A stretch of 64,000 nt of DNA from contig CAVZDP010000009.1 of the NCBI GenBank assembly GCA_963774075.1, positions 171,103 to 235,102 on the forward strand. The letters are read 5' to 3'. Below, in pieces: positions 3,089 to 50,294 of the stretch (position 1 is the first letter of the stretch; the number at the start of each line of letters is the position of its first letter). Under the pieces are notes generated by a model. That model did no database searches. It had not been told where the DNA came from and worked only from the letters and a program-made list of their open reading frames with translations. The position numbers were made by a program, and so were the translations under genes. Source of the stretch: an uncultured Solirubrobacterales bacterium. GTDB lineage: Bacteria > Actinomycetota > Thermoleophilia > Solirubrobacterales > JBBDJG01.

Positions 3089-3302
3089 TCGATCCCCTTT
3101 CGGCCGGCCGAATCCACCATCCCGACATTGGAGCGGCTCCTGATAAGAGGCTCGTTAAGGACCAAGAGGCCGCCGTCGACGCTGAGGTCACCGCAGGCTC
3201 TACAGGTTCTCAGAAGCCGAGAGAACTCGCGCCGCTGCATCGGGCGAGCAAACCAGCGGTTCTTGTGAGGTTGATGGCAATTGCCTGAGATCCGGCTAAG
3301 AA

Positions 3303-33936: not shown

Positions 33937-35244
33937 CTAACGCAAGCTCTCGAGCGCCCTCCGCGCGCGTGGTCCATAGAGCGGCGAGAAACGGGGGTTG
34001 TTGCCAAGCGAGCGGGCGAGATAGCGGCGAGCGAGATCGCGACGGCCGGTCGCTCGAGCGCTCATGCCCGCGTGAAACAGGAAGACCGGATCTCGTGAGC
34101 CCAGCCGGAGCGCTCGCCGCGCCCAGCGGAGACCCTGGTCGGGCCGGCCGGCCTGTGTCAGGGCCCACCCGAGAGCATCCGCGGACCGCACGCTGGGCGC
34201 GAGCGCCCAGGCGCGGCGGCCGAGGCCGACCGCTCGATCGGGGTCGCCGTGGCTTGCCTCGAAGAGGGCGACCTCGGTGCTCGTATTCTCACCGTTGCGG
34301 CGGGCGCTGACTTCCTGGGCGGCAGCCCGCGAGAAGTGCCTGCGGGCGGCGACGCGCTGCCCCGCCGCGAGCTCAGCCTCGCCCAGAGCGATGAGAAACT
34401 CGGGCACGGGGGCGCGAGCGACCGTCAGGCGGTAGCGGCGGATCGCCGCGTCGAGCTGTCCGCGGGCGGCGGCGACGTTCGCGAGTCCGGCGCTCGCGGG
34501 GGCGTACGCTGGATAGCGCGCGATCGCCTGCCGGTAAGCGCGCTCCGCCTTTCGGGTTCGGCCGAGCTGAAACTCGAGGTTGCCGAGCAGCGTCAGCACA
34601 TACGCAGCGTTCTCCGGTGTCTCCCCACCGGCTGACACGGCGAGCGTCATCGCCTCGTGGGCGCCGCGCAGATCACCGTGCAGCTCTCTGAAGTAGGAGA
34701 CGCGGGAGTAGGAGGCGAGGTTCGGCTTCAGGTCGATCATGCGCTGAAGCGCGCGAGCGGCGGCACCGTAGCGGCCGAGCTCGACGTTGGCGTCGACGAT
34801 CACGCCGTAGATGCGTGCTACGCCGGGAGCGGCCTTGCGCGCCCTCAGGCCATAACGGAGCGCCTTGTCGAAGTGATGGCGCCCGAGCGCGAGCGCTCCG
34901 AGGCCGGCGAGCGCTCCGGCGTCGCCTGGCCGCAGCTCGAGGGCACGCCGGAAGGCAGCCTCGATCCGGGGGAAGTAGCTCGTGTCGGCTTCCTCTCGCA
35001 CTTTCTGGAGGTACACGTTTCCGAGCTGCGAATACGCGTCCGCATTGCTCGGGTCCGCGGCGATCACCGCGCTGAGCGAGCGGATCAGGCCATCGGTCGA
35101 GCGCGGGGGCGCCGCCGATCCCGAGCCATCGCCCGCCTGCGGTGGAGACGACGAGCCGTTCAGGACCGCGATCACCGCCAGCGTGACAGCAAACGCCAGC
35201 AGCGGCGCGAGCAGCTTGATCAGAAGCGGTCTGTTGAGGGCCAT
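33937..35244 (-). CDS. Tetratricopeptide (TPR) repeat protein with N-terminal membrane anchor
   Basis: 435-aa ORF with an N-terminal TM segment. Repeated A-x-x-x-Y-x-x-A-L/A-P TPR-like units. Confidence 0.8.
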   Translation of the reverse strand: MALNRPLLIKLLAPLLAFAVTLAVIAVLNGSSSPPQAGDGSGSAAPPRSTDGLIRSLSAVIAADPSNADAYSQLGNVYLQKVREEADTSYFPRIEAAFRRALELRPGDAGALAGLGALALGRHHFDKALRYGLRARKAAPGVARIYGVIVDANVELGRYGAAARALQRMIDLKPNLASYSRVSYFRELHGDLRGAHEAMTLAVSAGGETPENAAYVLTLLGNLEFQLGRTRKAERAYRQAIARYPAYAPASAGLANVAAARGQLDAAIRRYRLTVARAPVPEFLIALGEAELAAGQRVAARRHFSRAAAQEVSARRNGENTSTEVALFEASHGDPDRAVGLGRRAWALAPSVRSADALGWALTQAGRPDQGLRWARRALRLGSRDPVFLFHAGMSARATGRRDLARRYLARSLGNNPRFSPLYGPRARRALESLR

Positions 35245-35344: not shown

Positions 35345-36901
35345 CTACGGAGCCGGCGGGACGTTCTCCCGCTTCAGCTTCGCGTCGAATCCCGACGTCG
35401 GCGATGCAACGTAGGGGAACTCGTTCGAGAACGGCTTGTCGTTGGTGTCGACACCGTCCCCGAGCGGGGTCGTGTTGGGCGGGTTGAGCAGCACGCCTGC
35501 TACTACGCGCAGCTCGATGTCCACCACGTCGTCCGCCAACCGGCGGCCGTTCGGGAAGCCCGCCACGTCCCCGGCGATCACGCCCAAGCGATTCGGCGTG
35601 GCACTTGGAGGAGTGGTGAGGTTGATCTTGAGTGTGTCGACCGGCTTCCCACTCTGACGGTTCAGGTCCGGGAGGCCTTGGAGCAGAGCCAGCACGATGT
35701 CCGTGCGACCCGTCTCCTTGACGCCCAGGTTGAACAGGGCGTTCAACAGCTTCGCCAGCTCCGGCTCCACGACGAACTGTCCGAAGTTCGCCGCGTCGTC
35801 AGCGGGCTTGGTGCGGTTGAACCTGTCCTTCTGGCCGATCGGGATCACAACCTCGTTGACGAGGGGGTTGCCGAGGCGCGACACCTGCACGTAGTCGCCC
35901 TTGCCTTCCTCGTTCGCGTTGTCAGTGACCTGGAGCTTGCGACGCTCGGTCGAGGCCCAGATACCGACGACGTTCTTGGAGGCGTTGGAGCCACTGGCCT
36001 TTGCGTCGTCCGCATCGCGATCGTCATCATCGTCGTCGTCCCTGGGACGGTCGGCCTTCTCACCGTTCTTCGTGACCGCCTGTTCGGGGACCTGAAGCAC
36101 GATCGAGTGGACCGAGTAACCGGCGAGGTCGTCCTTGCCGCCGCCCTTGTTTCCCGGCAGTGTTCCGCGGCCATCCAGGTTGATGCCGTCGAACGTCGCG
36201 CCCAGGTCGACGAAGAACGGATCGTCACGCTGACCGACGAACACGCGTCCGCCCCCCGGCAGGTCCCTGATCGCCTGCCGCGCGAGAGCGTCATAGTCGG
36301 GCATCGTCTTCGGGCCGACGTTGTTCGGAGCCACCGGATAGTCGTTGGCGATTCGCACCTCGCGCGTGTTGCTTCGCTTCGCACGACGGTGCTTGCCGCG
36401 GCGGTTCTTCTTCCGGTTGCCACGGTGCCTTGTGCTCTTCTTCGAGCTCGAGTGGGCCTTGGCTTCACCCACCCGGTAGATGTCGTAGGACTGCTTGACG
36501 AACAACTGTGGGTCGTCGAGCGACGTCACCTGAGGTGCCGCATAGAGGAACGAGTTCGGGTTCTCGTAGGTGGTCTTGAACTTGAACCGGTAGCGCACGT
36601 CCGCCTTGCCGTCACCGTCGTTATCGACGTTGATGTAGTAGCGGGCACGATCGTCGAACCGGTAGAAGTTCGGACCGCCGGCGGGATCCTCGAACGGGAT
36701 CCAGTTGGACACGACGGTCAACTGGTCCTCTTCGTTCCGCGCAGTCGCGGGGTCGTTCTTGGCCGTGAAGGCGTATACGTCCGTGTCGTCGGCGGTGGGG
36801 TCGATCGCGGTGAGCGGTGCCTCTCTGTGGCTCGAGCCGATGCTGAGCGGAACCGCGACCGCGATCGCCGCCAGCGCGGCGACGAGCGTGAGTTTCTTCA
36901 T
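35345..36901 (-). CDS. DUF4331 family secreted protein
   Basis: Start at M23 (MKKLTLVAALAAIAVAVPLS, ATG at 36901) behind an AAGGAGG RBS. The mature N-terminus GSSHREAPLTAIDPTADDTDVYAF is the DUF4331 hallmark. Confidence 0.8.
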   Translation of the reverse strand: MKKLTLVAALAAIAVAVPLSIGSSHREAPLTAIDPTADDTDVYAFTAKNDPATARNEEDQLTVVSNWIPFEDPAGGPNFYRFDDRARYYINVDNDGDGKADVRYRFKFKTTYENPNSFLYAAPQVTSLDDPQLFVKQSYDIYRVGEAKAHSSSKKSTRHRGNRKKNRRGKHRRAKRSNTREVRIANDYPVAPNNVGPKTMPDYDALARQAIRDLPGGGRVFVGQRDDPFFVDLGATFDGINLDGRGTLPGNKGGGKDDLAGYSVHSIVLQVPEQAVTKNGEKADRPRDDDDDDDRDADDAKASGSNASKNVVGIWASTERRKLQVTDNANEEGKGDYVQVSRLGNPLVNEVVIPIGQKDRFNRTKPADDAANFGQFVVEPELAKLLNALFNLGVKETGRTDIVLALLQGLPDLNRQSGKPVDTLKINLTTPPSATPNRLGVIAGDVAGFPNGRRLADDVVDIELRVVAGVLLNPPNTTPLGDGVDTNDKPFSNEFPYVASPTSGFDAKLKRENVPPAP

Positions 36902-37017
36902 AAGACCTCCTTGATTAGGAATCCACATTGCACTAACGGCGCCCCTCTCTCTCGCCGACATGTCCACCCTTTACGTCCAACCGAACTTCTCCTGGACCCG
37001 GAATAGACAGAACCGTC

Positions 37018-37046
37018 TTTCTAGCAAAGACAGACCTGTCTGTCAA
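37018..37046 (-). promoter_or_regulatory. Promoter-operator module copy 1 (minus orientation, reads toward the DUF4331-TPR operon)
   Basis: Reverse complement is TTGACAGACAGGTCTGTCTTTGCTAGAAAGAC. -35 TTGACA, 17-nt spacer, -10 TAGAAA. Palindrome GACAGAC-NN-GTCTGTC at 37029-37044. Confidence 0.55.
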
Positions 37047-37409
37047 AGTGCATGTCGTACCCGAAGAGAATGTCGCGTCGCGGTGGGCGCGGCGACGCCG
37101 CGCCGGTCTTGGTTGGCCAGACAATGGGGGAGACTGGCAAGCCACATCCAGGGTGGCAAGGCCAAGAGGCTCGTCGCCTACTGGGACCGCGAGCGCGCGC
37201 TCTCCGAGCTGGGATTCGCCCCGGAGGCAGACTCACCGCGCTCGTAGTTCGAGGTGCCGCTTCGCGCGAAACGGGCAGGGCGATGAGTGGGCGTCCGCGC
37301 ACAAGAAGGAGGGCGCTCCCGCTCGTCTCCGTCTGTAAGCACCTCCCCGAAGAGGTGCTGGTGAGATGATGGAACCGCCAACGAACCTGCGTTCTGAATG
37401 GAGGTCCCG

Positions 37410-37901
37410 ATGAGCACGACAGACGAGCTCATAGAGAACAGCAAGGCATACGCCGAAGGCTTCGACAAGGAGGATCTGCCGCTCCCGCCGGCGAAGAAGG
37501 TGGCCGTCGTCGCCTGCATGGACGCGCGCCTGATTCCCACCCGCGTGCTCGGCCTCGAAGAGGGCGATGCTCATGTGATCCGAAACGCAGGCGGCGCTGT
37601 GACAGACGACGAGATCCGCTCGCTTGCGATCTCTCAGCACCAATTGGGCACTGAGGAGATCATCCTCATCCACCACACCGACTGCGGCATGCTCACCTTC
37701 ACCGACGATGAGTTCCGCTCCCGTCTGCAGGAAGAGACAGGCATCCGGCCGGAATGGGCCGCGGAAGCGTTCAGCGACTTGGATGGGGACGTTCGCCAGT
37801 GCATCGGGCGCATCAAGGCCAGCCCTTTCATCCCACGCAAGAACGTGCGCGGTTTTGTCTACGACGTCGCCACGGGAAAGCTCCGTGAAGTTCAGGCTTA
37901 A
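37410..37901 (+). CDS. Beta-class carbonic anhydrase
   Basis: Zinc ligand motifs CMDAR and HTDCG. GGAGG RBS before the ATG at 37410 (the ORF is open from 37398). Confidence 0.85.
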   Translation: MSTTDELIENSKAYAEGFDKEDLPLPPAKKVAVVACMDARLIPTRVLGLEEGDAHVIRNAGGAVTDDEIRSLAISQHQLGTEEIILIHHTDCGMLTFTDDEFRSRLQEETGIRPEWAAEAFSDLDGDVRQCIGRIKASPFIPRKNVRGFVYDVATGKLREVQA

Positions 37902-38333
37902 CCTGAGCGATCCTCAGTAATACGCAGCCAGTACCGCCTTTCCGCTTGGCGCGATAGGAGCGTTCCGTGTCTGACTCTTCAGGGCTCAAGCTTGTGGGAG
38001 AGATCGGTCAGTCGGTTCGGCGCCGTCCGCGGCAACCCGGATTAGATCCTCGACCGACAGCCGCCGAAGCCGTGTCGATATAGGCCGGGCTCAAGCGCGA
38101 GTATGAGCCTTTAACGCCAAGCCAACGCAGGGCTCTATAGACAGGAAGTCTCTGTCTCTAGCACCCTGGAGGGGACTGGTTAGGACAATCGATGCGGCCC
38201 ATATACGGCCCACGAAACGCCGGTGCTGATGACCCGCGATGCCGAAAGCGGGGCCCGCTCGGGATATGAAGCGTTTAACCGAAGCGGGCTCGCGCCCTGG
38301 CTCGATTGGCATCCCGATGTGGAGTACATCAAC

Positions 38334-39179
38334 TCAGGAAAGACTCCGACCACGGCGTTCACCGGAGCGCTTCTCGACGATGGTGAGCGCTTCGGCTTGC
38401 CGATCTGCAGCCTCCTGCAACGTCGCTCCGTGCCTGCGCGAGCGGCGCCATGCCGCCTGGGACAGCTTGTAGGCACGGTCGCGTGCGCCGTTGAGCCACC
38501 CGGCCGGTTCCATGCCGCCGCCTGTGTTCCAGGGGTTGAAGCGCAGCGCGTCCAGCTCGGCCGGGAGCCGCGCGCCGATCTTGAGCTTTGCGACCGGTCG
38601 GAACCGGCCTCGGATTGCCGCGACAGCGAGCTGGAAAGCGAGCCGGCCGCTCAATGCAGCGGCGTCGAGGCGTTCGAACTCGGTCTCACCGGCAGGGCGC
38701 GGCGAGTGGCGATCGGGCAGCGCTCCGACGAGAAAGAGATCGCGTCCGGCGCGGTACGGAAGCGACGACGTATAGGGCCGCTGCTGTACGTCGGTCGCGG
38801 GAAGAAAGATGTGGTGCAGGATCGGGTAGTCGGCCGAAGTGACGAGCAAGAAGTCCTGATGCCGGCCTTTGCCGTAGACGTCGAGCACTCGTATCGACAT
38901 CCCGAGCAGGTCGGGGATCGGGCGCGGCACGCCGACTGACCGCGAGAACCGCACGATCGCGCGGTGCTCGGCCGGCTCCGCTAGCAACCTCGACGTGCGA
39001 GGAGCAGTCGCCGCACCGGCGACAACGAGTCGAGCATCGTAGACGACACCGTCCGGGTGGACCGCTTTCCCGCGCCGAAGTCCGGCAACGGTCGCCAGCA
39101 CCCCTCCGAGGGCAAGACCCGCGACCTCTTCGAGCGAGCGCTCGCGCCGATTCTGGTTTCGAGGGTTCACAGACTGCAA
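38334..39179 (-). CDS. Hypothetical protein (281 aa)
   Basis: Protein-like composition. The VRFSRSVGVPRPIPDLLGMSIRV segment faintly resembles the catalase-core RFS...G motif. No confident family call. Confidence 0.5.
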   Translation of the reverse strand: MQSVNPRNQNRRERSLEEVAGLALGGVLATVAGLRRGKAVHPDGVVYDARLVVAGAATAPRTSRLLAEPAEHRAIVRFSRSVGVPRPIPDLLGMSIRVLDVYGKGRHQDFLLVTSADYPILHHIFLPATDVQQRPYTSSLPYRAGRDLFLVGALPDRHSPRPAGETEFERLDAAALSGRLAFQLAVAAIRGRFRPVAKLKIGARLPAELDALRFNPWNTGGGMEPAGWLNGARDRAYKLSQAAWRRSRRHGATLQEAADRQAEALTIVEKRSGERRGRSLS

Positions 39180-39461
39180 TTACCCGGTTGGAGCGGAGTA
39201 ATTCCGACGACCTTGCCTTCGACGTGAAAGCGAGCGAAGTGATGGCTGGGCTTGGGATGTGGTCCGATGATGTCCGCCAGCGCCGGGTCCCGCTCGGATT
39301 CGTCCTTGACGAAGGCGGCGAAGTCCTCGGTGTGCTGCTTCGTCCCCGCTCGCTCGCCTCGTGCTCCTTGTGGTGGGTTCCTTTACGGGCGTTCACCCCG
39401 GTGACAGCTCGGCGCCGGAGTAGGCGCGCCTCCGTCTCTAGCGCTACTACTCCGTGCGGCA

Positions 39462-40055
39462 TTACTGCCTGCGATGCTCGTCGATCAAGCGGCGCGCCAT
39501 CGATTTGGCTCGCTGCGCCGCTTCGGAGTCGCCCTCGGCGGCTGAGACGATCGAGCCTTTCATCAGGATGTGCCAGGAGCGGGCGAACGAATCTGGATCT
39601 CGCAGGCCTGCCTCTTCGGCCAGGCGCCCCACGATCGAGCGTATGTTCTCGAGGTGCTGGATGCTCGCCCTACCAGCCTGGTGTTCGGGACCCATCTCCA
39701 GCAGGACATTGATGAACGAGCACGCCTCGAAGTCGTCCCGGCGAAACCAGCCGTCGAAGGCGTCGAAGATCGCAAGCAGCTGCTCCTCCGGGGTGGAACC
39801 ACCTCGTCTGGCCTCTGCTTCGACCCAGTCGAGGGTCCACAGCCGCTCGCGCCGCTCCAGGAAGGCGAGCACCAGCTCGTCTTTTGAAGGAAAGTGCCGA
39901 TAGAGAGTCGCCTTGGCGACGCCGGCGCGCTCGATCACCTCGTCGACGCCGACACCTCGCACGCCGCGGCGCGAGAAAAGCTCATAGGCGGTGTCAAGAA
40001 TCCGCTCGCGAGCCTCAGGTTCGACACGGCCGATGGTTTCAAGGCTTTGTGTCAT
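39462..40055 (-). CDS. TetR family transcriptional regulator (paralog of 45256..45891)
   Basis: HTH GVDEVIERAGVAKATLYRHFPSKDEL. Divergent from promoter-operator copy 2. Confidence 0.85.
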   Translation of the reverse strand: MTQSLETIGRVEPEARERILDTAYELFSRRGVRGVGVDEVIERAGVAKATLYRHFPSKDELVLAFLERRERLWTLDWVEAEARRGGSTPEEQLLAIFDAFDGWFRRDDFEACSFINVLLEMGPEHQAGRASIQHLENIRSIVGRLAEEAGLRDPDSFARSWHILMKGSIVSAAEGDSEAAQRAKSMARRLIDEHRRQ

Positions 40056-40074
40056 GGATACAAGTGTAGTTCAG

Positions 40075-40103
40075 TTGACAGACAAGTCTGTCTCTGATAG
40101 AAA
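40075..40103 (+). promoter_or_regulatory. Promoter-operator module copy 2
   Basis: TTGACAGACAAGTCTGTCTCTGATAGAAA. -35 at 40075-40080, 17-nt spacer, -10 at 40098-40103. Palindrome at 40077-40092. Sits between the TetR gene and the SRPBCC gene. Confidence 0.6.
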
Positions 40104-40155
40104 GACCGTTCTGTTCAGGGAAGAACCTCCAACGACAAACCATCGAGGAGGAGCC

Positions 40156-40620
40156 ATGTCGAAAATCGAGGAGTCGATCGAGATCGGGGTGCCAGTCAGG
40201 GCAGCCTACAACCAGTGGACGCAGTTCGAGGAGTTCCCACGATTCATGGAGGGCGTCGATGAAGTTCGTCAACTCGATGACACACACCTCCACTGGAAGG
40301 CCGAGATGTGGGGAAAGGTCAAGGAGTGGGACGCCGAGATCAGCGAGCAGCGCCCGGACGAGCGCGTGGCGTGGACGGCCACCGAGGGCGCGAGGAACGC
40401 AGGGGTCGTCACGTTCCACAAAATCGACGAGAACAAGAGCCGCGTGATGCTCCAGCTCGACGTCGAGCCCGACGGACCGGCGGAGAGCGTCGGCGACGCC
40501 CTCGGCGTCGTGAAGCGGCGCGTGAAGGGCGATCTCGAGCGCTTCAAGGAGTTCATCGAAGGCCACGGCAGAGAGACCGGTGCGTGGCGGGGCGAGGTCG
40601 ACCGAGGCCAGGCCACGTGA
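40156..40620 (+). CDS. SRPBCC (cyclase/dehydrase-like) family protein
   Basis: ATG at 40156 after a GGAGGAG RBS. IEIGVPVRAAYNQWTQFEEFPRFMEGV is typical of COG5637-type SRPBCC proteins. Confidence 0.8.
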   Translation: MSKIEESIEIGVPVRAAYNQWTQFEEFPRFMEGVDEVRQLDDTHLHWKAEMWGKVKEWDAEISEQRPDERVAWTATEGARNAGVVTFHKIDENKSRVMLQLDVEPDGPAESVGDALGVVKRRVKGDLERFKEFIEGHGRETGAWRGEVDRGQAT

Positions 40621-40794
40621 GGGAGGAGTCCAGTCCGCCCCGCTTTATGCGCTGATTGTAGGCGCGGCGCCGCTATTCGCGGGCATCGTGGGTTTCTTTT
40701 ACGAGGCGGCGTGCGCCCACGTGTCGCAAACAGCCACAGGCACTCCTGGAGAGATGGGGCGGCAATGCCAGCTCAGATGCGAGGGGATGTGCGG

Positions 40795-41709
40795 GTGAGC
40801 CGAACGGCCCTCGTCACAGGCGCGACCGGCTTCGTCGGCGGGAGGCTGGCCGAGCGGCTAGCCGGACGCGGCTGGGGCGTCCGCTGCATGGTCCGCAGCC
40901 GCGAGCGGGCGAGGCATCTCGCAGGAGCCGGCTTCGACCTGCACGAAGGCGATGCGCTCAAGCCCGACTCCCTCCGAGGGATGGGCGAAGGAGTGGACGT
41001 CGCCTACTACCTTATCCATGCGATGGGCCGTGGAGGCGACGCCTCCTTCGAGGACCGCGAGCGTTTGGCCGCCGAGGGGTTCGGGCGAGTGGCGAAAGAG
41101 GAGGGGGTCGCGCGCGTCGTCTATCTGGGCGGCCTGGGCGACAACCCGAAGTCCAAGCACCTTCGCAGCCGTCATCGGACCGCTCTTCTCCTGGAGGCGG
41201 CCGGTCCGCCACTCACCTACTTCCGCGCGGGCATGGTCGTGGGGGCGCGCAGCGAGTCTTATCGCACGCTTCGCTACCTGGTCCAGCGACTGCCGGCGAT
41301 GATCGCCCCGGCTTGGCTTCGCAACGAGACCCAACCAATAGGGGTCGACGACGTGCTCGACTACCTCGCTGCGGCGCCGGACGTCCAGCAGGCGAAAGGC
41401 CGCGAGATCCAGATCGGCGGTCCCGACGTCGTCACCTATGGCGAGATGCTCCATCTCATGGCCGAAGCGCTCCACAAGAGGCGCCGCCCCCAGATACCAG
41501 TGCCGTTGCTTACGCCGTGGCTCTCGTCTCTTTGGATCGGCCTCGTGACGCCAGTGGACGCCGCGGTAGCACGGCCCCTCATCGAGGGGCTTTCCGGAGA
41601 TACGGTCGTGACCGACCCCTCGGACGCCGCACTCTTTGACATCCGGCCCGAGGGTTTCGGCAAGGCGCTCGAGAAGGCGATCGCCGAGGATCCCGACCTG
41701 CAGAGCTGA
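40795..41709 (+). CDS. NAD(P)H-binding atypical SDR / NmrA-like protein
   Basis: Rossmann motif VTGATGFVGGRL close to the N-terminus. The GTG at 40795 is preferred, with GAGGGG upstream. The ORF is open from 40711 and ATG 40765 is an alternative start. Confidence 0.75.
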   Translation: MSRTALVTGATGFVGGRLAERLAGRGWGVRCMVRSRERARHLAGAGFDLHEGDALKPDSLRGMGEGVDVAYYLIHAMGRGGDASFEDRERLAAEGFGRVAKEEGVARVVYLGGLGDNPKSKHLRSRHRTALLLEAAGPPLTYFRAGMVVGARSESYRTLRYLVQRLPAMIAPAWLRNETQPIGVDDVLDYLAAAPDVQQAKGREIQIGGPDVVTYGEMLHLMAEALHKRRRPQIPVPLLTPWLSSLWIGLVTPVDAAVARPLIEGLSGDTVVTDPSDAALFDIRPEGFGKALEKAIAEDPDLQS

Positions 41710-41997
41710 ACTCAGCGCTCAGTAAGAGCGCGAGCCGCCAGGGGTGTGCGGACTCCGCCCTATGACTTCCGACAGGCCCCATCATGCGGCGTCGTCCGGT
41801 TCGGTTGAAGTCGGCGCTTCGCTACGCGCCGTCGTGTGACGACAGGCATGGCCCTGCTCGCCCTGGCCTTATCGGCTCGCGGGTTCGAGGCGTAAGTCGC
41901 TCGCGCACCTTCCGCTCGATCTTCTCGATCCGCGCGGTCGTCGCCCGCGCCGTCTGGGCATGGCTCGGCCACGGGATTGCGCTTCATCACGGCGAGC

Positions 41998-42045
41998 GGG
42001 GGCAGGGAGGACTCGAACCCCCGACTATCTGGTTTTGGAGACAAG
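41998..42045 (-). other. tRNA 3'-half-like fragment (anticodon arm with CCA/Trp-type loop, T-arm, 3' acceptor strand), possibly an att-site remnant
   Basis: Minus strand reads CTTGT-CTCCAAA-ACCAG ATAGTC GGGGG-TTCGAGT-CCTCC CTGCCCC. No matching 5' acceptor strand or D-arm lies upstream, so it is not a functional tRNA. Confidence 0.4.
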
Positions 42046-42130
42046 TACGTCCGTCAGCCATCCGGCTTTACAAAGCGAAATTTCCGATGACTAATCGCCC
42101 GTGGGCACACGAGCGGGTTCGCTCGAATCA

Positions 42131-42424
42131 CGTTACGCGCCGAGGACTCGATCTCGAATGCCAGCAGCTCGTCACGTGAGACTCGGAACTCGATCTGCCC
42201 GCCTCGAGATGTCCGTCCAACGTTCCCAAGCGAAAGGACGTCCGAGTGCGATCCATGACTCGAGCCGGGCCGTCCCAGGGACCAGGCATGCGCACCACAA
42301 ATTCGTCGGCCCCGCCAGTGAGTCCATTTCCACCAACCTTCTCGAAAAGCTCGGTGCCGGCCAAGACGCTCACGACTGCTTGCCGCAGCCGCCGGCTGGC
42401 CGGCGGGCATGCTTCTGCGGGGGG
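42131..42424 (-). pseudogene. DUF1990 family fragment with a frameshift
   Basis: FVVRMPGPWDGPARVMDRTRTSFRLGTLDGHLEAG (ORF 42128..42571) continues as QIEFRVSRDELLAFEIESSARN in another frame (ORF 42054..42410). Homologous to 49539..50294. Confidence 0.5.
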
Positions 42425-42696
42425 ATGCTCATCGCATACCCGAGCGACCCTTGGGGTAGGCATGACAGAATGCTGACCAAGACGATGCATAAAGCCGGTG
42501 TGTGCGGCTAACAGATGCATGCCTTGTCGTTGGGTTCCGTTGGTCTCGCTGGGTTCCGTTGGTCTTTGCATCCGGCTCTGGCTCCGGGCGAAGACGGTGG
42601 ATCAGGACGAACGCAGCAACGCCGAGCGCAGGGCACTGTTCGTAGGATTGTGGGCTCCGACTTCTGGCAGATCGGGGACTCGCTCGAGCGCCACCA

Positions 42697-43329
42697 TTGA
42701 GCTCCGGCCCCGGAATGCAGCTCTTGTCGATGTCCGATGAGGCCATCCTCGAACCGGGGGTGGGGGTTCGCTCGATTCAGCAGGCCGAGTATTGCATCAG
42801 TGCGGCGGCGCTCGATAAAAGATGGTGTCCGGAGGGTCTCGCGTGTTTGGCAAGACAGTACTGGCGTCCGGTAACCCAGCGCTCGGGGCGCCTCCTGCGG
42901 TTGCTTGGCACGGATCAGGGTCCACGGCTGGTGTTGGGCGTGGCCTCTCTGGCGCTGATTCGCTTCGATCGACCTCGTTACTTCCTCGGACACGACAACG
43001 GCGAAGTGAGCTGGTCAATCAACACGGGGCTGCTGGTGTCCGCGGCTCCGGTGCCCGACCGGGGGGTCCTGCGCGTCATGGTTCAACGTCGGCAGAGCGC
43101 TCGCAGTCCCGACGTCGCGCTGCTGCATCTCACGGTGGAGGTCGAGGGCTTTCAGCCGCGGCTACGGAGCAGAGGTCGCTTCGCGCGCGTGGGTACTTGG
43201 GTTTACCGACACACTCAGCTTCGGCTACACGCGTGGCAGGCACGAGCGTTCATGCGGTCGCTCGCACAGAGGCCGCCCGCCGCCTCTGAATTCTCTAAAC
43301 CGGAGATCCTCAGACTGGGCAACGCTTAG
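42697..43329 (+). CDS. Hypothetical protein (start uncertain)
   Basis: 210-aa ORF with acceptable composition. The C-terminal TWVYRHTQLRLHAWQARAFMRSLA pattern is reminiscent of DUF2867-type tails. No firm family call. Confidence 0.4.
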   Translation: MSSGPGMQLLSMSDEAILEPGVGVRSIQQAEYCISAAALDKRWCPEGLACLARQYWRPVTQRSGRLLRLLGTDQGPRLVLGVASLALIRFDRPRYFLGHDNGEVSWSINTGLLVSAAPVPDRGVLRVMVQRRQSARSPDVALLHLTVEVEGFQPRLRSRGRFARVGTWVYRHTQLRLHAWQARAFMRSLAQRPPAASEFSKPEILRLGNA

Positions 43330-43367
43330 ACAACACGAAATCAGTGCGAGTCCGACTCCGGCATCAC

Positions 43368-44318
43368 TCATTTCACTTCGGCGATGCCCCGCTCGGCAAG
43401 CTGCTCGCGCAGCCGTAGCAACGCAATGTCCTTCGCCTTCGCCTCGAGCACCACGTCGAACTCGAGACCGCTTGCGGTCGTGCGCAAGAACTGCTCGAAG
43501 GCGATCGGATCGATCATGTCGGCGTGCGCACGTAGTTGGGGGAGGACGAGCGACCGCTCCACCCGCCGCCCCTTGCGGCGTACCCGCTCAGTCGTCGCCG
43601 TCTTTGGCGTCGAATAGTGGATCTTCGGAGTCACGCCGGCCGGCCAAGTCGCCAGCGCAAGCTTGAGCGCCTCACGATCGGGAATCCCAGCTGGATCGTG
43701 ACAGTGATGGTGAAGGACGTCCCAAACCACCGGTAACCCCGTGCGCTCCGAGATCTTCAGCACATGGACGAGCGCATAGCAGCGATCGTCGTTCTCGATC
43801 ACGAGGCGAGCACGGGCCCTCTCCGAGAGCGCGTCGGCCGAATCTACAAAGCGCTCGATGCCAGCGTCGGGACCGCCAGCCATGCTGCCGACGTGAAGGA
43901 CGACGACGGCTTCGGCTTGCAATCCGAAGCCGTCGAGCACGCGAGCCTGCAGCTCGAGATCGCGCAAGGCCGCAGCACGAACGTGTTCCGACTCGGAGTT
44001 CAAGACCACGTACTGGCCGGGGTGGAAAGACAGACGCAAGTCGAACGCGCGTGCCCTCTCGCCTAGCTGCGCGAGACGCTCTGCACATTCCTCCAGCTGG
44101 CCGTGGAACTGGGGGAGATCGGGATGGGTCCCGTAGGGGACGAGCGACGAGCTCATCCGGTACATGGAGATCGCGTTGCGCTCGAGGTAGTCGAAGATGC
44201 GGTCGAGACGCCCGAGCGAGATAGTGAGATGTGGCCCCGACTGCCAGCGACGAGCGTCGTGAGAGGGCAACCCTCCGTCGCCCAGCACCTTGACAGCAAA
44301 GCCCAGTCGATGCCTCAT
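43368..44318 (-). CDS. uvsE: UV damage endonuclease (UvdE/UvsE)
   Basis: 316-aa ORF. RLGFAVKVLG..., MYRMSSSLVPYGTHPD, FHPGQYVVLNS and IENDDR are all characteristic of UvdE. Confidence 0.85.
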   Translation of the reverse strand: MRHRLGFAVKVLGDGGLPSHDARRWQSGPHLTISLGRLDRIFDYLERNAISMYRMSSSLVPYGTHPDLPQFHGQLEECAERLAQLGERARAFDLRLSFHPGQYVVLNSESEHVRAAALRDLELQARVLDGFGLQAEAVVVLHVGSMAGGPDAGIERFVDSADALSERARARLVIENDDRCYALVHVLKISERTGLPVVWDVLHHHCHDPAGIPDREALKLALATWPAGVTPKIHYSTPKTATTERVRRKGRRVERSLVLPQLRAHADMIDPIAFEQFLRTTASGLEFDVVLEAKAKDIALLRLREQLAERGIAEVK

Positions 44319-44465
44319 GCAGCTTTCGCTACCCTGCGTCGCCGTTTCCGCCCCAGTGGTTCGAGCCGGACCAGCTCGGGCCGGGAAGGCGAGAGAAAAG
44401 TCTGATCACCCAGGTAGGTTGCCGACTCGCGCCGACCAGACGTGGCCGAGCGGTTGTCTGAAGTC

Positions 44466-44915
44466 TCAGGCTTTTGTCGTCCGGGCTCTAGTGGCTCCGC
44501 GAGATAGCGCGACGCCCAATGTCAGCATGCCGACGCCCAATGCGAAGTGGAGCCAGTTGTCCGCATTATTAAGAGGAACGAAGTTGGCGCCACTATCCCG
44601 TTCGATCACCAATCCGTAGATCCACAGCAGCAGGTAGATGGCTCCGCCGCCAACTAGAAAGAGACGAGATTCGTCCGCGGTCCTTGCCAACGAGAGCCCC
44701 GCGACACCGAAAAGAATGTGGACCAGATTGTGGAGGACGCTCACCTGGAAAACGCCGAGAAGCTCCGCGTCTCCATCGTGGCCAGCGAAATCCAGCCCAT
44801 CGTAGAGATTGGTAGTGATCCCGGGAATGAAGCCGACAATGCCAACGAGCAGGAAGGTCAAGCCGACGAGCAGGGCGGCGGTTTGAATCAGAGGACGGCC
44901 AGGGCGCGCGGTCAC
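44466..44915 (-). CDS. DUF4383 family membrane protein
   Basis: Four hydrophobic helices. LVGIVGFIPG...NLVHILFG...NWLHFALG pattern. Confidence 0.8.
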   Translation of the reverse strand: MTARPGRPLIQTAALLVGLTFLLVGIVGFIPGITTNLYDGLDFAGHDGDAELLGVFQVSVLHNLVHILFGVAGLSLARTADESRLFLVGGGAIYLLLWIYGLVIERDSGANFVPLNNADNWLHFALGVGMLTLGVALSRGATRARTTKA

Positions 44916-45255
44916 GTGTACGTCCTTCCCGCATTTTATCTACCTAAACCGCAGCCTTCCGTCCTATCCGCCCCCGAGGCTCCTCCCGTTGTAAGCCACT
45001 ATTTCTCCTAGTCAGCTGTATCACCTTGGAGGGCCTGCCAGCCGCGCTGGCAGCGCGCGAGCAGGCGCAGCTCGCTCTCGATCGGAGCATCTGACGGTCG
45101 ATGGCATCGACGATCGCATCGCGTGCAAATCCGCTCGATCGCGGCGGACGGGGCCGCCTGACCCTGGACCTTCAAGTCTGCGGCTGGCGTAGGTGCGAGT
45201 GTCGCGAGGTCAAGGTGGTCGAGTGCCCTCGCGCGAGGCGACGCACGTAGGTGCG

Positions 45256-45891
45256 CTACGGCGAGGAGGAAGAAGCCGGTTGTGACCCAGTTTGGCGGTG
45301 GCGGTCGATCAGGTCTCGGGCCATGGCCTTGGCGCGCTGGGCGGCGTAGGGGTCGCCCTCCGCCGCTGCAACGATCGAGCCCTTCACGAGGATGTGCCAG
45401 GAGTGGGCGAAGGCATCTGTGTCGCGCAGGTCGGCCGTCTCGGCCAGTTGGCGCACAATCGATTTGATGTATTCGACGTGGCGGACGCTGGCGCGGCCAG
45501 CGGCGTGGTCGGCGCCCATTTCTATCAGCGCGTTAAAGAACAGGTACGCGTCGAAGTCCCTGTCGCGGAACCGCTCGTCAAAGGTCTCGAAAATCGCCAG
45601 CAGCCTTTCTTCGGGTCCGGCGTCACCGTTCCGGGCCTGGGCCTCGTAGATGTCGTGGGTCCAATGCTGTTGGCGCCGCTCTAGGAACGCGAGGACGAGG
45701 TCATCTTTGGAGTGGAAGTGGCGATAGAGCGTCGCCTTCGCGACGCCGGCGCGCTCGATCACCTCCTCGACGCCCACGGCGCGAATACCGCGTCGGGAAA
45801 ACAATTCGTACGCAGCGTCTAGGAGTCGCTCGCGCGGGCTGCGGCGCAGGCCGTCGTCGGTCGGCGAGGTCCCCGTCGTCGAGTCGGCCAC
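45256..45891 (-). CDS. TetR family transcriptional regulator (paralog of 39462..40055)
   Basis: GVEEVIERAGVAKATLYRHFHSKDDL. Collinear similarity to the 39462 protein over the full length. Confidence 0.85.
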   Translation of the reverse strand: MADSTTGTSPTDDGLRRSPRERLLDAAYELFSRRGIRAVGVEEVIERAGVAKATLYRHFHSKDDLVLAFLERRQQHWTHDIYEAQARNGDAGPEERLLAIFETFDERFRDRDFDAYLFFNALIEMGADHAAGRASVRHVEYIKSIVRQLAETADLRDTDAFAHSWHILVKGSIVAAAEGDPYAAQRAKAMARDLIDRHRQTGSQPASSSSP

Positions 45892-45913
45892 GATAACCCC
45901 TAACTATTCCTGA

Positions 45914-46126
45914 CTACCGGCGCTTCGCCGGCTGCGCCGCGACGACCGCGCCGGACGGTCGTTCGCTTTGTCTTGCGATGCTCGAGCAATCGAGCAGCTC
46001 GTCGATGCCGACACCGCGGACGCCGCGGTGCGCGAACAGTACGTAGGTGGTTTCAAGGATGTGCACGCGAGCTCCGAGTCGCCTGCCGCGCCCGGCTTCA
46101 ACCGTAGTTGCCATCGCACCCAGCAT
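45914..46126 (-). pseudogene. Truncated TetR N-terminal (HTH) fragment
   Basis: 70-aa ORF. ILETTYVLFAHRGVRGVGIDELLD then loses homology. Sits between operator copy 3 and the intact TetR gene. Confidence 0.5.
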
Positions 46127-46136
46127 ACACCCCCCC

Positions 46137-46165
46137 TTGACAGACCGGTCTGTCTTTGGTAGAAA
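46137..46165 (+). promoter_or_regulatory. Promoter-operator module copy 3
   Basis: TTGACAGACCGGTCTGTCTTTGGTAGAAA. -35 at 46137-46142, 17-nt spacer, -10 at 46160-46165. Palindrome at 46139-46154. Faces the STAS/stress cluster. Confidence 0.6.
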
Positions 46166-46255
46166 GACCGTTCTTTACCGGTACGTGGAAACAGACTGAG
46201 CTTGGCGTCCAGTCTGAAGACCGCCCTTTCGCCAGTCCAAGGGAGGAGCTTGAGT

Positions 46256-46714
46256 TTGAGACATAGAACAGTGCAGTCCTTCGGCGATTCGAAGGTGATC
46301 CCACCCGAAGACAGCGGCCGCCCGCAGCCGCCCGACCGCTCCGATATCCCCTATCGCGAACAACAGGCGCCGCTCCTCGATGTCAGGGTCGAGCGCACAG
46401 ACTCTCTGACGTACGTCGAGCTGCGTGGCGAGCTCGACCTGAGCTGCGAGGACCAGTTCGGCGATTCCGTGGACACGGTCCAGTCCGGCCGGCTCGTGCT
46501 CGACCTCCGGGCCCTGACGTTCATCGACGCGGCGGGACTTAGGATGATCCTCCGGACGTGGCAGCGCTCACGCGAAGAAGGGTTCGCTCTGGAGATCGTG
46601 GGGGGGCGCGATCAGGTCGAGAAGGTCTTTCGAATCACGGGCCTCGACCGCACGCTCCCGATGGCCGATCAGATCTCACTGAATGGTGGCTCGCAACACT
46701 CCAACAGTCACTGA
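46256..46714 (+). CDS. STAS domain protein (anti-sigma-factor antagonist-like)
   Basis: LTYVELRGELDLSCEDQF...LVLDLRALTFIDAAGLRMIL...VFRITGLDRTLP. Start is uncertain: the ORF is open from 46202, and TTG at 46256 follows GGGAGGAG. Confidence 0.7.
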   Translation: MRHRTVQSFGDSKVIPPEDSGRPQPPDRSDIPYREQQAPLLDVRVERTDSLTYVELRGELDLSCEDQFGDSVDTVQSGRLVLDLRALTFIDAAGLRMILRTWQRSREEGFALEIVGGRDQVEKVFRITGLDRTLPMADQISLNGGSQHSNSH

Positions 46715-46767
46715 AGACGACCGGTCACTTGAAAAACCAACAATTCACTGCGAAAGAAGAAGGTGAA

Positions 46768-47814
46768 ATGAAGTCAACGAAGTCAACCGAGAAGATCATT
46801 CAATACCTGAACGAGGCGCACGCGACCGAGCAGGCGCTCACGCGAACCCTGCAGGCGCATATCGCGATGACGCCATCCGGGCGCTACCGCAGCGACCTGG
46901 AGCGTCATCTGCGCGAGACGGCATCCCACGCGGAGCGGGTCGAGCGCCGTCTGGGCGAACTCGCCGGGGAGCGAGGCCTGCTCCAGCTGGGCGTCGGCGC
47001 CATCCAGAGCCTGCTCGGCCAGGCGATTGCCCTGAGCAAGGGGCCATTGGACCTCATGCGCGGAGAGAGCGGCGAGGAGAAGCTGCTCAAGAACGCCAAG
47101 GACCAGTGCTCAACCGAGGCGCTCGAGATCGCCACCTACATTTCGCTAGAGCATCTTGCGCACCGCGTAGGCGACGACAAGACGGCGGCGCTCGCCGCCT
47201 CGATTCGCGAAGACGAGGAGCGCATGCTCGAGCGGCTCAGTGAGCACCTTCCTCAGCTGGTGGACGACGCAGTTCGCTCCGAGCTCGAGGGCGAGCAGCT
47301 CTACGAGATCTCAACGACCGGTGCTGCCCAGACGGCTCGGCGCACGCGGCGGCAGGTAGAGGACGCCGTCCAGAGGACGGCGAAGCGGGCCGGCTCGCGG
47401 GCGCGCGATAGCGCGCGCCAGGCGCGCCGGGTCCCGGGTGTCGCACAGGTCGAGGGCGAGGTCAAGGGCGCGGCAGCCTCGGAGGCGGATCTCGCGATCC
47501 GAAACTACGACCAACTCAACGCCGACGAGATCCTCCCGCAGTTGACCGAACTCTCGCAGATCGACCTGGCGAAGATCGACGCCTATGAGCGCAAGAACGC
47601 CAATCGCTCCACGGTGCGGCGCCGCATCGCCTCGCTACGTGGCGACGAGCCCTGGCCGGGCTACGACGAGCAAACGGTCGGCGACGTCCGCAAGGAGCTA
47701 ACCGCAGCCGACGAGGAGGAGCTGGCCGACGTTCGGCAATACGAGCGTCGGCACAAGGACCGCCAAGGCATCCTGGAAACCGCCGAGCGCAAGCTGAATC
47801 ACTCGGACGCATAG
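46768..47814 (+). CDS. DUF892/YciE-like ferritin-fold protein with an extended charged C-terminal domain
   Basis: ATG at 46768. IIQYLNEAHATEQALTRTLQAHIAMTP...HLRETASHAERVERRL. Confidence 0.75.
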   Translation: MKSTKSTEKIIQYLNEAHATEQALTRTLQAHIAMTPSGRYRSDLERHLRETASHAERVERRLGELAGERGLLQLGVGAIQSLLGQAIALSKGPLDLMRGESGEEKLLKNAKDQCSTEALEIATYISLEHLAHRVGDDKTAALAASIREDEERMLERLSEHLPQLVDDAVRSELEGEQLYEISTTGAAQTARRTRRQVEDAVQRTAKRAGSRARDSARQARRVPGVAQVEGEVKGAAASEADLAIRNYDQLNADEILPQLTELSQIDLAKIDAYERKNANRSTVRRRIASLRGDEPWPGYDEQTVGDVRKELTAADEEELADVRQYERRHKDRQGILETAERKLNHSDA

Positions 47815-47860
47815 ACGCCGCCCGCGTTTCACAACCTATCCAACAATAAGGAGGCAACAC

Positions 47861-48202
47861 ATGGCAGGAGCAGCTCAAACAGCATCACCACCTCGCACCG
47901 GTACCGGTCGCGGCATAGGCGGCGTAGCGCGTCGCCTCACGACCGAGACCAAGCACGCCCTCAAGACCACGGAGTTCTACGCCTACGTGGTCACGTTCGT
48001 CACTGATCCTTATCGCGGGCGCCGTGATCAAGCAGAAGGACAACGTGGACGCCTTCCAGCCGACAAGGTCTGGCTCTACATCACGATCCTCACCGTGGGA
48101 TACATGATCGCCCGCGGCCTGGCGAAGCGGGCAGTCGTGATCCGTACTGGGAGGGCTCAGAACCAGCACGCGGGGCAGGACAACGGCGACGACCGCCATT
48201 AG
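47861..48202 (+). CDS. Small membrane protein, probably carrying a compensated double frameshift (~48000 and ~48058)
   Basis: AAGGAGG RBS before the ATG. The as-assembled middle (TDPYRGRRDQAEGQRGRLPA) is polar. The +1 frame reads LILIAGAVIKQKDNVDAFQ and completes a TM helix with the preceding EFYAYVVTFV. Confidence 0.55.
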   Translation: MAGAAQTASPPRTGTGRGIGGVARRLTTETKHALKTTEFYAYVVTFVTDPYRGRRDQAEGQRGRLPADKVWLYITILTVGYMIARGLAKRAVVIRTGRAQNQHAGQDNGDDRH

Positions 48203-48396
48203 GACCTAGCGCACGCATCCATGTTCGTGTTCAAGCGGCCGGGCAGTCGCGCGCAGGTGCGCTTCATGCCCGGCTGCTTGATCTGGTCACTCATCCTCTC
48301 GGTCGGCCTGACCGTCCTGATCAACGTGGTCATTCGCCTCTTCTGAGAGTTCGGACAAGCGTACGCAGGATGAAACAACTACCAGCAGGAGGCAAC

Positions 48397-48903
48397 GTGG
48401 CAAATCCAGAAACATCCGAAGACACCGCCGGCGGATCGGTCGGCAAGCTCGCAGGCAAGGCCAAGGAGCTTGCGGGCTCAGTCCTTAACAATGATCAGCT
48501 CGCACGTGAAGGTCGGCTCCAGCAAGCGCAGGTGAAGGCCGAGGCCGAAGCCGCCCGGGAAAAGACAGAGGCGGCGCAGCGCGAGGCCGAGGCAGAATTA
48601 AGCGAGGCCCGAGCCGACAATGAGTTGGAGCGCACGCGGCTTCAAACCGAGCTGTCGGCCGTGGAGCACCAGGCCGGCATAGAGCGCGACCGCGAGCAGG
48701 CGCAGCAGCAGGTCGAATCGCGCACTCAACAAGAAAAGCTGGGTGCTGAAGCAGAGCGGCGCGCTCAGGTAGCGGCGGCGGCGCGGGCCGTGCAGCAGGC
48801 AGAGGCCGTGCACGAGTCCGAAAAACGCGCGGCGGCGCAGCTAGAAAAGGAAGCGCGCCGAGCGGAGATCACGGCTGACGACATCGATCCTGAGGAGAAA
48901 TAA
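48397..48903 (+). CDS. CsbD-like stress protein with a long coiled-coil tail
   Basis: GKLAGKAKELAGSVLNNDQLAREG is CsbD-like. AGGAGG RBS before the GTG at 48397 (the ORF is open from 48370). Confidence 0.7.
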   Translation: MANPETSEDTAGGSVGKLAGKAKELAGSVLNNDQLAREGRLQQAQVKAEAEAAREKTEAAQREAEAELSEARADNELERTRLQTELSAVEHQAGIERDREQAQQQVESRTQQEKLGAEAERRAQVAAAARAVQQAEAVHESEKRAAAQLEKEARRAEITADDIDPEEK

Positions 48904-48942
48904 TGATCCGCACTATCTGCGAGATCAGCAATTGGCGGTTAC

Positions 48943-49515
48943 TTGAAGCTCCTGCGCTTCCCGTTCGACTCGGGTATCAGGCTTCTGGGGGCCGGCCACC
49001 GGGCCTCCAGAGCAGAGCTCGCACTCGACCGTTTCGACGGGACGGTGCGAGAGGTCGCCGGCAGGGTGCTGCGCGACGAAGAGCTGCTGGACCATGGCGC
49101 GCGCCTGCGCGCGGCGACGAGCGAGCGAGAGCGCGCACAGTCTCTGCGCGAAGCGGCCGAGCGGCGCTCGCAGCAGGCCGACAGTCGGATCGCCGACAAA
49201 GAAAAACTGGCGAAGAGACAGCGGCAGGAAGCCGCTCGGCGCTCGCAGGCGCAAAAAGAGCGAGCCGACCGTCAGCGTCAAGCAGACAGCCGCCGACTGA
49301 CCGAGGCCGAAACCCGGCGAATAGTTGCCGCCAAGAAAGCCGCGGCCGAGACCAAGGCGGCTCTCAACCATCGTGCCAAAGAAGGCCGGCTCGAGCAGCT
49401 CGACGAGGAGGCAAGTGCCCTTGCCAAGCGGGAGCGTGCACTGGTCGCTGAGCAAGAGGCTGAGCGCCTACGTCGGGCCGCCAGCAAGACGAAGGCCGCT
49501 CGAAAACGCGGCTAG
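48943..49515 (+). CDS. Charged coiled-coil hypothetical protein (start uncertain)
   Basis: 190-aa ORF rich in E/R/A/K heptad-like sequence. An ATG at 48903 overlaps the previous stop but is in another frame, so a frameshifted N-terminus is possible. Confidence 0.5.
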   Translation: MKLLRFPFDSGIRLLGAGHRASRAELALDRFDGTVREVAGRVLRDEELLDHGARLRAATSERERAQSLREAAERRSQQADSRIADKEKLAKRQRQEAARRSQAQKERADRQRQADSRRLTEAETRRIVAAKKAAAETKAALNHRAKEGRLEQLDEEASALAKRERALVAEQEAERLRRAASKTKAARKRG

Positions 49516-49538
49516 TTGACGGAGCTAAGTTCGGTCCA

Positions 49539-50294
49539 ATGACAGCCAGCCCCCCATTAGCCTCCGTTCGTGAAGGTCCGGCTAGTGTGCGACTACGGCG
49601 CTTCGTGCGCGAAACGGTCGGCTGGGCGGTTGGCATACCGATGGCCACCTTTCGCTACCTCACGCGAGAGGTCGACCTCCACCGAGTCGACGAGAAGCTC
49701 GACGAACCGATCGCCGACTTGAATCCGGACCCGCACGTCGCGGCGGATGAGAGCACCCAGCCTCCGTCGGAAGGGGTGGGGCCGGAGTTTTACCGGCGGT
49801 ACTCGCTCAAGATACGAAGGCCTCGCATCTCGGCGGAGCAGTTAATAGATGTTTTGTCGGCTGATCCGAACGTCGCGGCGCCGGTCGAGCTGGCTCGCTT
49901 CGTCAAGCGCGATGGGGATGCTGATGAGATGTCGGTCGGAGACGAGTACGTGGTGCGGATGCCGGGACCTTGGAACGGGCCTGTGCGTGTCACTTCCCGC
50001 ACTCCTCGTTCGTTTGGGCTGGTCACGCTCAAAGGTCACATGGAGGCTGGGGAGATCGAATTCACGGCCGAGCCTCGAAGCGACGGCGCGATCGATTTTA
50101 GAATCGAGTCGTGGGCGCGGAGCAACGGCTGGCTTTTCCACCTTCTCTACCACCGCCTACGTCTGTCGAAAGAAGTGCAGATGCACATGTGGGCGGAGTT
50201 CTGCCAGCGGGCAGCGCTCGTCGCGGGCGGAAAGCCGGAGAACGGCATCGAAGTCCGTACGGCCCGTTACGAGGACGACGATGAGGGCGACTGA
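49539..50294 (+). CDS. DUF1990 family protein
   Basis: YVVRMPGPWNGPVRVTSRTPRSFGLVTLKGHMEAGEIEF. Confidence 0.75.
   Translation: MTASPPLASVREGPASVRLRRFVRETVGWAVGIPMATFRYLTREVDLHRVDEKLDEPIADLNPDPHVAADESTQPPSEGVGPEFYRRYSLKIRRPRISAEQLIDVLSADPNVAAPVELARFVKRDGDADEMSVGDEYVVRMPGPWNGPVRVTSRTPRSFGLVTLKGHMEAGEIEFTAEPRSDGAIDFRIESWARSNGWLFHLLYHRLRLSKEVQMHMWAEFCQRAALVAGGKPENGIEVRTARYEDDDEGD

Follow-up and report, generated by a model that had tools for sequence, protein, structure and literature searches.

Three copies of a 38-bp module and the genes around them

We analysed a 64,000-nucleotide stretch of DNA, hereafter the window, from an uncultured Solirubrobacterales bacterium (GenBank assembly GCA_963774075.1, contig CAVZDP010000009.1, positions 171,103 to 235,102 of the forward strand), in which a 38-bp module, TTGACAGAC-NN-GTCTGTCT-YTG-N-TAGAAAGAC-S-GTTCT, occurs in three copies, two of them beside genes for TetR family regulators. 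Written as a degenerate 38-mer, TTGACAGACNNGTCTGTCTYTGNTAGAAAGACSGTTCT, it matches with 0 mismatches at 37009–37046 on the minus strand (M1), at 40075–40112 on the plus strand (M2) and at 46137–46174 on the plus strand (M3), the three sites at which a preliminary description of the locus had placed it; 100 dinucleotide-preserving shuffles gave 0.00 matches. The palindrome GACAGAC-NN-GTCTGTC alone has three perfect matches and one with two mismatches in the window, with 0.44 expected. Weaker matches (up to three mismatches) outside the modules occur in the 64 kb at the level of chance, 5 being found and 4.9 expected, and the window thus holds exactly three modules. A decayed relative of the module (TAGACAGGAAGTCTCTGTCTCTAG) had also been proposed, at 38119–38142. 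The string in fact lies at 38138–38161 on the plus strand and is not among the window matches with up to three mismatches; because its arms do not keep the operator spacing and because it sits between convergent genes, we did not count it as a site; probably it is no more than a relic or chance resemblance, without function. A scan of metagenome contigs for ACAGACNNGTCTGTN7TAGAAMGAC returned no match.

M1 is an orphan copy with no adjacent TetR gene. It faces a minus-strand operon of a DUF4331 gene (35345–36901; in its 518-aa form it begins near 36901, and the listed open reading frame (ORF) runs to 36967) and a TPR-repeat gene (33937–35244), a pair conserved in three related loci of other genomes (L123, L124 and L125). 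M2 lies between the gene for TetR1 and a plus-strand operon (40156–41709) that encodes an SRPBCC protein (40156–40620) and an NmrA/epimerase-like NAD(P)-binding protein (40711–41709), with synteny in L121 and L122. M3 lies between a truncated TetR fragment followed by TetR2 and a plus-strand cluster (46202–50932) encoding a STAS anti-sigma-factor antagonist, a DUF892 protein, small ORFs, a CsbD-like protein and two DUF1990 proteins. The earlier gene calls (DUF4331, TPR, the two TetRs, SRPBCC, STAS, DUF892, CsbD and DUF1990) proved right.

All three modules contain a perfect -35 hexamer, TTGACA, a 17-nt spacer, a -10 hexamer, TAGAAA, and TG in the extended -10 position. On the minus strand of M1, the -35 element occupies 37046–37041 and the -10 element 37023–37018; the corresponding positions are 40075–40080 and 40098–40103 in M2, and 46137–46142 and 46160–46165 in M3. 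The palindrome, here called O1, supplies the GACA that it has in common with the -35 hexamer and occupies the spacer (M1, GACAGACAGGTCTGTC, 37044–37029; M2, 40077–40092; M3, 46139–46154). Its central dinucleotide is AG, AA and CG in the three copies; this, the hexamers with their exact 17-nt spacing and the downstream GAC[C/G]GTTCT had all been described before, and the sequence confirms them. Beginning 23 bp downstream of O1 is a weaker, operator-like 16-mer, O2 (GAAAGAC-SG-TTCTGT), which has two mismatches in M1 (GAAAGACGGTTCTGTC, 37021–37006), three in M2 (40100–40115) and four in M3 (46162–46177). The left arm of O2 overlaps the 3′ part of the -10 hexamer, and O2 as a whole covers the predicted start site. 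The second inverted repeat of the preliminary description, GTCTYT-N5-AAAGAC, is present, but its halves are better assigned to two neighbouring elements, the right flank of O1 and the left arm of O2. A terminator role for the hairpin that spans the -10 element was rejected on account of its promoter context.

Nine orthologous or paralogous copies have in common the invariant block T.GACAGAC-NN-GTCTGTCT-nnnn-TAGAAAGAC-nnn-TCT.T, in which the operator arms, the -10 element and O2 are fixed and the central dinucleotide, the spacer and all flanks vary. Invariant arms around a variable centre had been put forward as the signature of an operator; the pattern holds in the orthologous loci, where the spacer varies too. 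DNA identity is 89–95% between the modules and about 72% between the TetR genes next to them, which argues that the module is under constraint (or gene conversion) and is not merely young. Similarity between modules ends within about 47 bp, and their flanks are unrelated.

The TetR proteins and their candidate operator across genomes

TetR1 (197 aa; 39462–40055, minus strand) is encoded divergently from the SRPBCC gene, and TetR2 (211 aa; 45256–45891, minus strand), which is 70% identical to it, divergently from the STAS operon. Both match TetR_N (PF00440) at their N-termini, with E values of 4e-19 and 7e-19; the match of TetR1 to TetR_C_13 is weak and falls below the cut-off (21.7 versus 27 bits). 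The truncated TetR fragment that had been described beside M3 is real. It is a third TetR copy, a 70-aa ORF (45914–46126, minus strand) that covers only helices 1 and 2 and the start of helix 3; it is 53% identical to residues 15–48 of TetR1 (E 7e-11) and, at the DNA level, 80% identical at an equal distance from the module. Its ATG is 11 nt from M3, and L121 and L122 have this ORF too; a frame at 45904–46119 was rejected for want of similarity. On the far side of TetR1, an ORF at 38686–39462 that overlaps its stop codon was considered as the downstream gene and is probably not the true one, and a frame at 38334–39179 has the coding signature and an ortholog in L122.

An AlphaFold2 model of TetR1 has nine helices and a predicted local distance difference test score of 87.9; the PDB entries that rank highest against it are without exception TetR family regulators. 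SCO4454 (3g7r) and SAV143 (3jsj) rank best by structure, followed by Rv0078, PA2196, EthR2, NemR and YxaF (1sgm). TetR_C_13_2, an LmrA/YxaF-like model, matches one member of the TetR1 family; the NCBIfam search reached no equivalog and had no NemR model among its matches. PA2196, which has been solved with operator DNA, was considered as a characterised member of the family and discarded, as a proteobacterial member gave no match to it at E<1e-8. The recognition helix, AKATLYRHF, is identical in TetR1 and TetR2 and invariant among 120 close homologs, so each of the two proteins should be able to bind all three modules.

We scanned one genome per species, 185,579 species in all, with the pattern TTGACAGACNNGTCTGTCT (17 specified bases) and found at least 121 sites in at least 118 loci; the counts and distributions that follow describe the matches listed, which are a sample only. 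They come from Thermodesulfobacteriota, Planctomycetota, Verrucomicrobiota, Dadabacteria, Nitrospirota, Acidobacteriota, Cyanobacteria, Leptospira, Proteobacteria and Actinomycetota. A full-length TetR1 homolog of about 195 aa adjoins 85 of the 121 listed sites (at least 70%), starting immediately downstream on the same strand at 60 and lying divergently adjacent at 25, and by phmmer several of the remaining sites are TetR-linked too. No sampled 8-kb locus has more than two sites. In the same-strand class, TAnnnT stands exactly 17 nt past TTGACA in 49 of 62 copies and an ATG follows 16–17 nt past the pattern in 43 of 62, which marks these as leaderless, autoregulated TetR genes. A second site with up to three mismatches accompanies 23 of 39 divergent or actinobacterial-type modules, at a modal offset of 23 bp, and none of 47 leaderless modules.

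The genes that follow TetRs of this family in other phyla encode Rv2258c-like methyltransferases, DJ-1/PfpI proteins and DinB-family proteins; in Proteobacteria and Acidobacteria the partner on the divergent side is DUF1348. Among the matches listed, the TetR gene is the only one that accompanies the motif throughout these phyla, which argues that the palindrome is the cognate operator of the TetR1 subfamily. The comparison supports the view that the two TetRs of the window belong to a widespread family without a characterised member and that O1 is their probable operator.

In related Actinomycetota, the cassette precedes SigB/F-like sigma factors (L001, L005, L040, L054 and L105) and STAS proteins (L100 and L102). 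Orphan sites with no TetR gene within the 8-kb locus occur elsewhere as well, in L105, ahead of the sigma factor, and in L036. Beside an 80% TetR1 ortholog in L001 is a gene (5743–7128) for a 461-aa protein matching TetR_N and SpoIIE (a PP2C phosphatase); the divergent target there is a SigB/F-like sigma factor, a further hint of a tie to partner switching. In two actinobacterial metagenome-assembled genomes (L013, ~5840–6150, and L061), the cassette stands ahead of a conserved protein of ~93–102 aa with a CECxRSDC motif (PLFREVNERIR...), for which Pfam gave no match. Searches of the literature with the motif strings returned only irrelevant matches.

The TetR1 family has a near-invariant RGC/EAC motif, in which Cys112 of TetR1 aligns with Cys106 of Escherichia coli NemR, by which that protein senses reactive chlorine species (PMC8748444). 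The cysteine is kept in all 120 close homologs and in 90 of the 95 motif-adjacent TetRs listed. Given this alignment, TetR1 is probably a thiol-based stress sensor that responds to an oxidant or electrophile. TetR2 has a tyrosine in place of the cysteine, and three of the five listed exceptions are likewise tyrosine homologs (L121, L122 and L102); each of these, as TetR2 itself, adjoins a STAS operon. TetR2 would then be a cysteine-less paralog tied to the STAS cluster, either responding to another signal or acting as a signal-blind co-repressor. The ATG of TetR1 is 20 nt from M2 and is directly preceded by TACACT and 7 nt, as upstream of E. coli nemR, an arrangement that suggests a leaderless TetR1 mRNA under the control of O1.

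The orphan module ahead of the DUF4331 gene

The history of M1 differs from that of the other two modules. We found no module at the DUF4331 orthologs L124 (87% identity) and L125 (76%), where DUF4331, TPR and NicO genes stand beside an extracytoplasmic function (ECF) sigma/anti-sigma pair; the NicO gene, which follows the TPR gene in the orthologs, is missing in the window. In L123 (3–880), a 98% relative, a module and a 5′ STAS-gene fragment are joined upstream of DUF4331, directly after DUF1990b. The STAS fragment is 88% identical to 46232–46443 of the window, making this an alternative junction of the same cassette. The DUF4331 leader contains a conserved CGTAAGGGT (window, 36970–36978; L123, ~800–830; L124, ~3110–3135), upstream of which the relatives carry a GATCCGCG element that the window lacks, its homology to L124 starting only at 36978. 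Both L123 and L124 have GGATCC/TGATCC 16 nt ahead of CGTAAGGGT, in L124 adjoining the ECF sigma/anti-sigma pair, and CGTAAGGGT with its upstream element resembles a promoter of ECF type, of which the window would have lost the -35 part. The homology of M1 to the TetR-adjacent module of L120 extends from 37000 to 37044, and the contig of L121 ends exactly at the edge of M1. In L122 (7905–8040), a 66-bp tandem duplication comprises the STAS-facing module (M3) and the first ~25 nt of the TetR-fragment ORF, leaving two complete promoter-operator cassettes in series. The absence from L124 and L125, the other junction in L123, the partial loss of the native leader, the rearranged relatives and the insertion sequence (IS) fragments nearby all point to a recent graft of the cassette. 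Judged by these alignments, M1 is a recent acquisition by recombination and not a conserved member of the regulon. A scan of metagenome contigs with the DUF4331 protein gave no match.

Such an origin raises the question of whether M1 is used at all. It could be a non-functional by-product of the rearrangement, the real regulon then consisting of the two TetR-adjacent operons, and the two orthologs that lack it next to an ECF pair, the differing junction of L123, the missing GATCCGCG and the contig break of L121 at the module edge would all fit. However, O1 is perfect in M1, O2 matches better there than in the other two copies, and the -35, spacer and -10 are intact; the module points the right way, about 110 nt ahead of the DUF4331 start, and, with the native upstream region gone, is the only evident promoter. 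We therefore consider a by-product rather unlikely. Its perfect O1, best O2 and correct orientation make trans control most likely, and on the strength of this perfect orphan site we would place DUF4331-TPR under TetR1 or TetR2. The preliminary description had counted the operon as part of the regulon; that stands as far as the site goes, with the amendment that the membership is recent.

Transposase fragments bracket the region of the TetR, stress and DUF4331 genes, one with a DUF772 N-terminal domain (32793–33392, minus strand) and one matching DDE_Tnp_1 and DDE_Tnp_1_6 (51121–51810, minus strand), and close relatives have a different arrangement of this region. Between M1 and M2, a beta-carbonic-anhydrase ORF (37398–37901, plus strand) covers only positions 2–79 of the 156 of Pro_CA and may be truncated. 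To the left of the region are two unrelated regulators without the motif, a TetR_C_46-type TetR (30736–31419, plus strand) and an MmyB-like helix-turn-helix protein (31841–32638, plus strand). Further left, four large tandem ORFs of 2004, 1131, 1131 and 2503 aa (5266–25523, plus strand) account for the strong GC and AT skew there; the three that were scanned contain SpaA_4 prealbumin-fold repeats, SdrD_B and beta-helix domains, and the four probably encode giant surface proteins.

A probable three-unit repressor regulon and its relatives

We consider it likely, with a probability of roughly 0.8, that the modules are sigma-70-type promoters with built-in operators of one TetR subfamily and that together they make up a small repressor regulon of three units. 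That a promoter-embedded operator common to two TetR paralogs links three operons had been suggested before, and gains support from the adjacency of operator and TetR gene across phyla and from the identical recognition helix. From these features we infer the following course of binding, repression and induction. A TetR dimer would bind O1 and a second dimer the weaker O2, and occupancy of the two sites would exclude RNA polymerase from the predicted start site. Since O1 is symmetric and lies 11–20 nt from the start codons of the divergent TetR genes, TetR1 and the transcript of the TetR fragment and TetR2 are probably autoregulated through these sites as well. The first unit would comprise the SRPBCC protein and the NmrA-like oxidoreductase, the second the STAS, DUF892, CsbD and DUF1990 stress genes and the third DUF4331-TPR, through the recently acquired M1. 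An oxidant or electrophile would release TetR1 by way of Cys112; TetR2, with its tyrosine, would be released otherwise or be blind to the signal.

Several points weigh against this reading. The -10 hexamer TAGAAA ends in A in place of the strongly conserved T, and a simple sigma-70 consensus scanner calls no promoter at the modules for that reason; O2 of M3 has four mismatches; the module is absent from the DUF4331 orthologs L124 and L125; and the genome scan, whose pattern included TTGACA, was biased towards promoter contexts and yielded only a sample of matches. As to the first, the odd hexamers TAGAAA, TAGAAC and TAGACA and the missing scanner call can be put down to O2, whose arm needs an A where the promoter prefers its final T, and the perfect -35 and extended -10 TG plausibly compensate for the atypical -10.

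The atypical -10 could also mean that the module is read by an alternative sigma factor, or that the palindrome is bound by another regulator, with the TetRs acting elsewhere. The frequent position of the module ahead of SigB/F-like sigma and STAS genes in related Actinomycetota makes feedback by an alternative sigma conceivable. Against this, the motif accompanies the TetR gene from phylum to phylum without any other common neighbour, the -35, 17-nt spacer and -10 have housekeeping-type geometry, with the TAnnnT of the leaderless copies (49 of 62 among the matches listed) in the same place, and an AGAC..GTCT-type palindrome over its own promoter is also found upstream of E. coli nemR; we hold this alternative to be improbable. 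Still less credible is a generic dispersed repeat, such as the end of a miniature inverted-repeat transposable element (MITE) or a REP-like sequence, that lies near TetR genes by coincidence: the three near-identical copies with unrelated flanks, the IS fragments on either side (32793–33392 and 51121–51810) and the rearrangement breakpoints at module edges would suit one, but at least 70% of the 121 listed sites, in many phyla, abut a TetR of the same family at fixed distances, no sampled locus has more than two sites, the window has three copies in 64 kb with weaker matches at chance, and there is no second repeat end, no target-site duplication and no element extending beyond about 47 bp, so that, with the promoter context added, we rejected the MITE reading.

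The favoured three-unit regulon resembles known systems in different respects. E. coli NemR, which controls nemRA-gloA in the electrophile and bleach response, has the TetR fold (TM-score of 0.77–0.80 to the TetR1 model) and is autoregulated through an inverted repeat (PMC13178969). As with TetR1, the promoter of nemR contains a palindrome with AGAC..GTCT arms, followed by TACACT and 7 nt before the ATG, and the detoxification-type genes that partner the family elsewhere (DJ-1/PfpI, DinB and methyltransferase, in other phyla) resemble nemA and gloA. However, NemR and TetR1 are only 21% identical, the half-sites of the NemR box, TAGACC-N4-GGTCTA, lie 2 bp further from the centre than those of O1, and the partner residue Lys175 of NemR is not conserved, TetR2 lacking the cysteine as well. 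With this identity, this half-site spacing and no NemR model among the NCBIfam matches, TetR1 is not a NemR ortholog.

In Bacillus subtilis, the two paralogous TetR_C_13-type repressors LmrA and YxaF (QdoR) jointly control several operons, including their own, through common boxes with a TAGA..TCTA core, and their effector is a flavonoid. Sequence similarity to the TetRs of the window is low, the operator sequence and spacing probably differ from those of O1, and the effector contrasts with the cysteine-based signal proposed here. NemR and LmrA/YxaF are the closest functional analogues, and neither is an ortholog. The best matches in sequence and fold, the Streptomyces structural genomics entries SCO4454 (3g7r) and SAV143 (3jsj), show only 28–29% identity, although SCO4454 carries the same FRGCAFLN motif. 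They give no functional label, being deposited only as 'putative transcriptional regulator' and 'putative TetR-family transcriptional regulator', and we found no function, operator or ligand for either. With classical promoter occlusion by TetR and QacR, the modules share a palindrome over the -35, -10 and start site, a divergent regulator gene and, by prediction, autoregulation and more than one dimer per promoter. Unlike there, an arm of O1 supplies four bases of the -35 and O2 supplies part of the -10, and the module is reused in front of unlinked operons.

The system is of an ordinary kind, and the reading of it as an autoregulated regulon of TetR repressors, in which one promoter-operator cassette is reused, is well supported. 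A broader picture is tentative and, on balance, doubtful: the family might consist of NemR-like cysteine redox or electrophile sensors with an almost invariant, promoter-fused operator, set in soil Thermoleophilia and related Actinomycetota atop a partner-switching stress machinery of SigB/F-like sigma and STAS proteins, with a Cys-to-Tyr TetR2 lineage dedicated to STAS and a 38–47-bp cassette made portable by recombination, which would carry it to further operons such as DUF4331-TPR.

These findings leave the understanding of TetR regulation unchanged, and the points they add are of modest interest: an operator conserved across phyla, a NemR-like cysteine that one paralog has lost, the association with sigma and STAS genes, and DUF4331-TPR as a recent gain. 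They provide a ready, testable operator and regulon for a TetR subfamily that is large and lacks a characterised member, and suggest a likely signal, thiol-reactive stress acting through a NemR-like cysteine. In soil Actinomycetota, an abundant but poorly studied group, they connect a one-component repressor with sigma factors, STAS proteins and stress genes, and they offer a clear example of how a regulon may grow by the relocation of a self-contained promoter-operator cassette.

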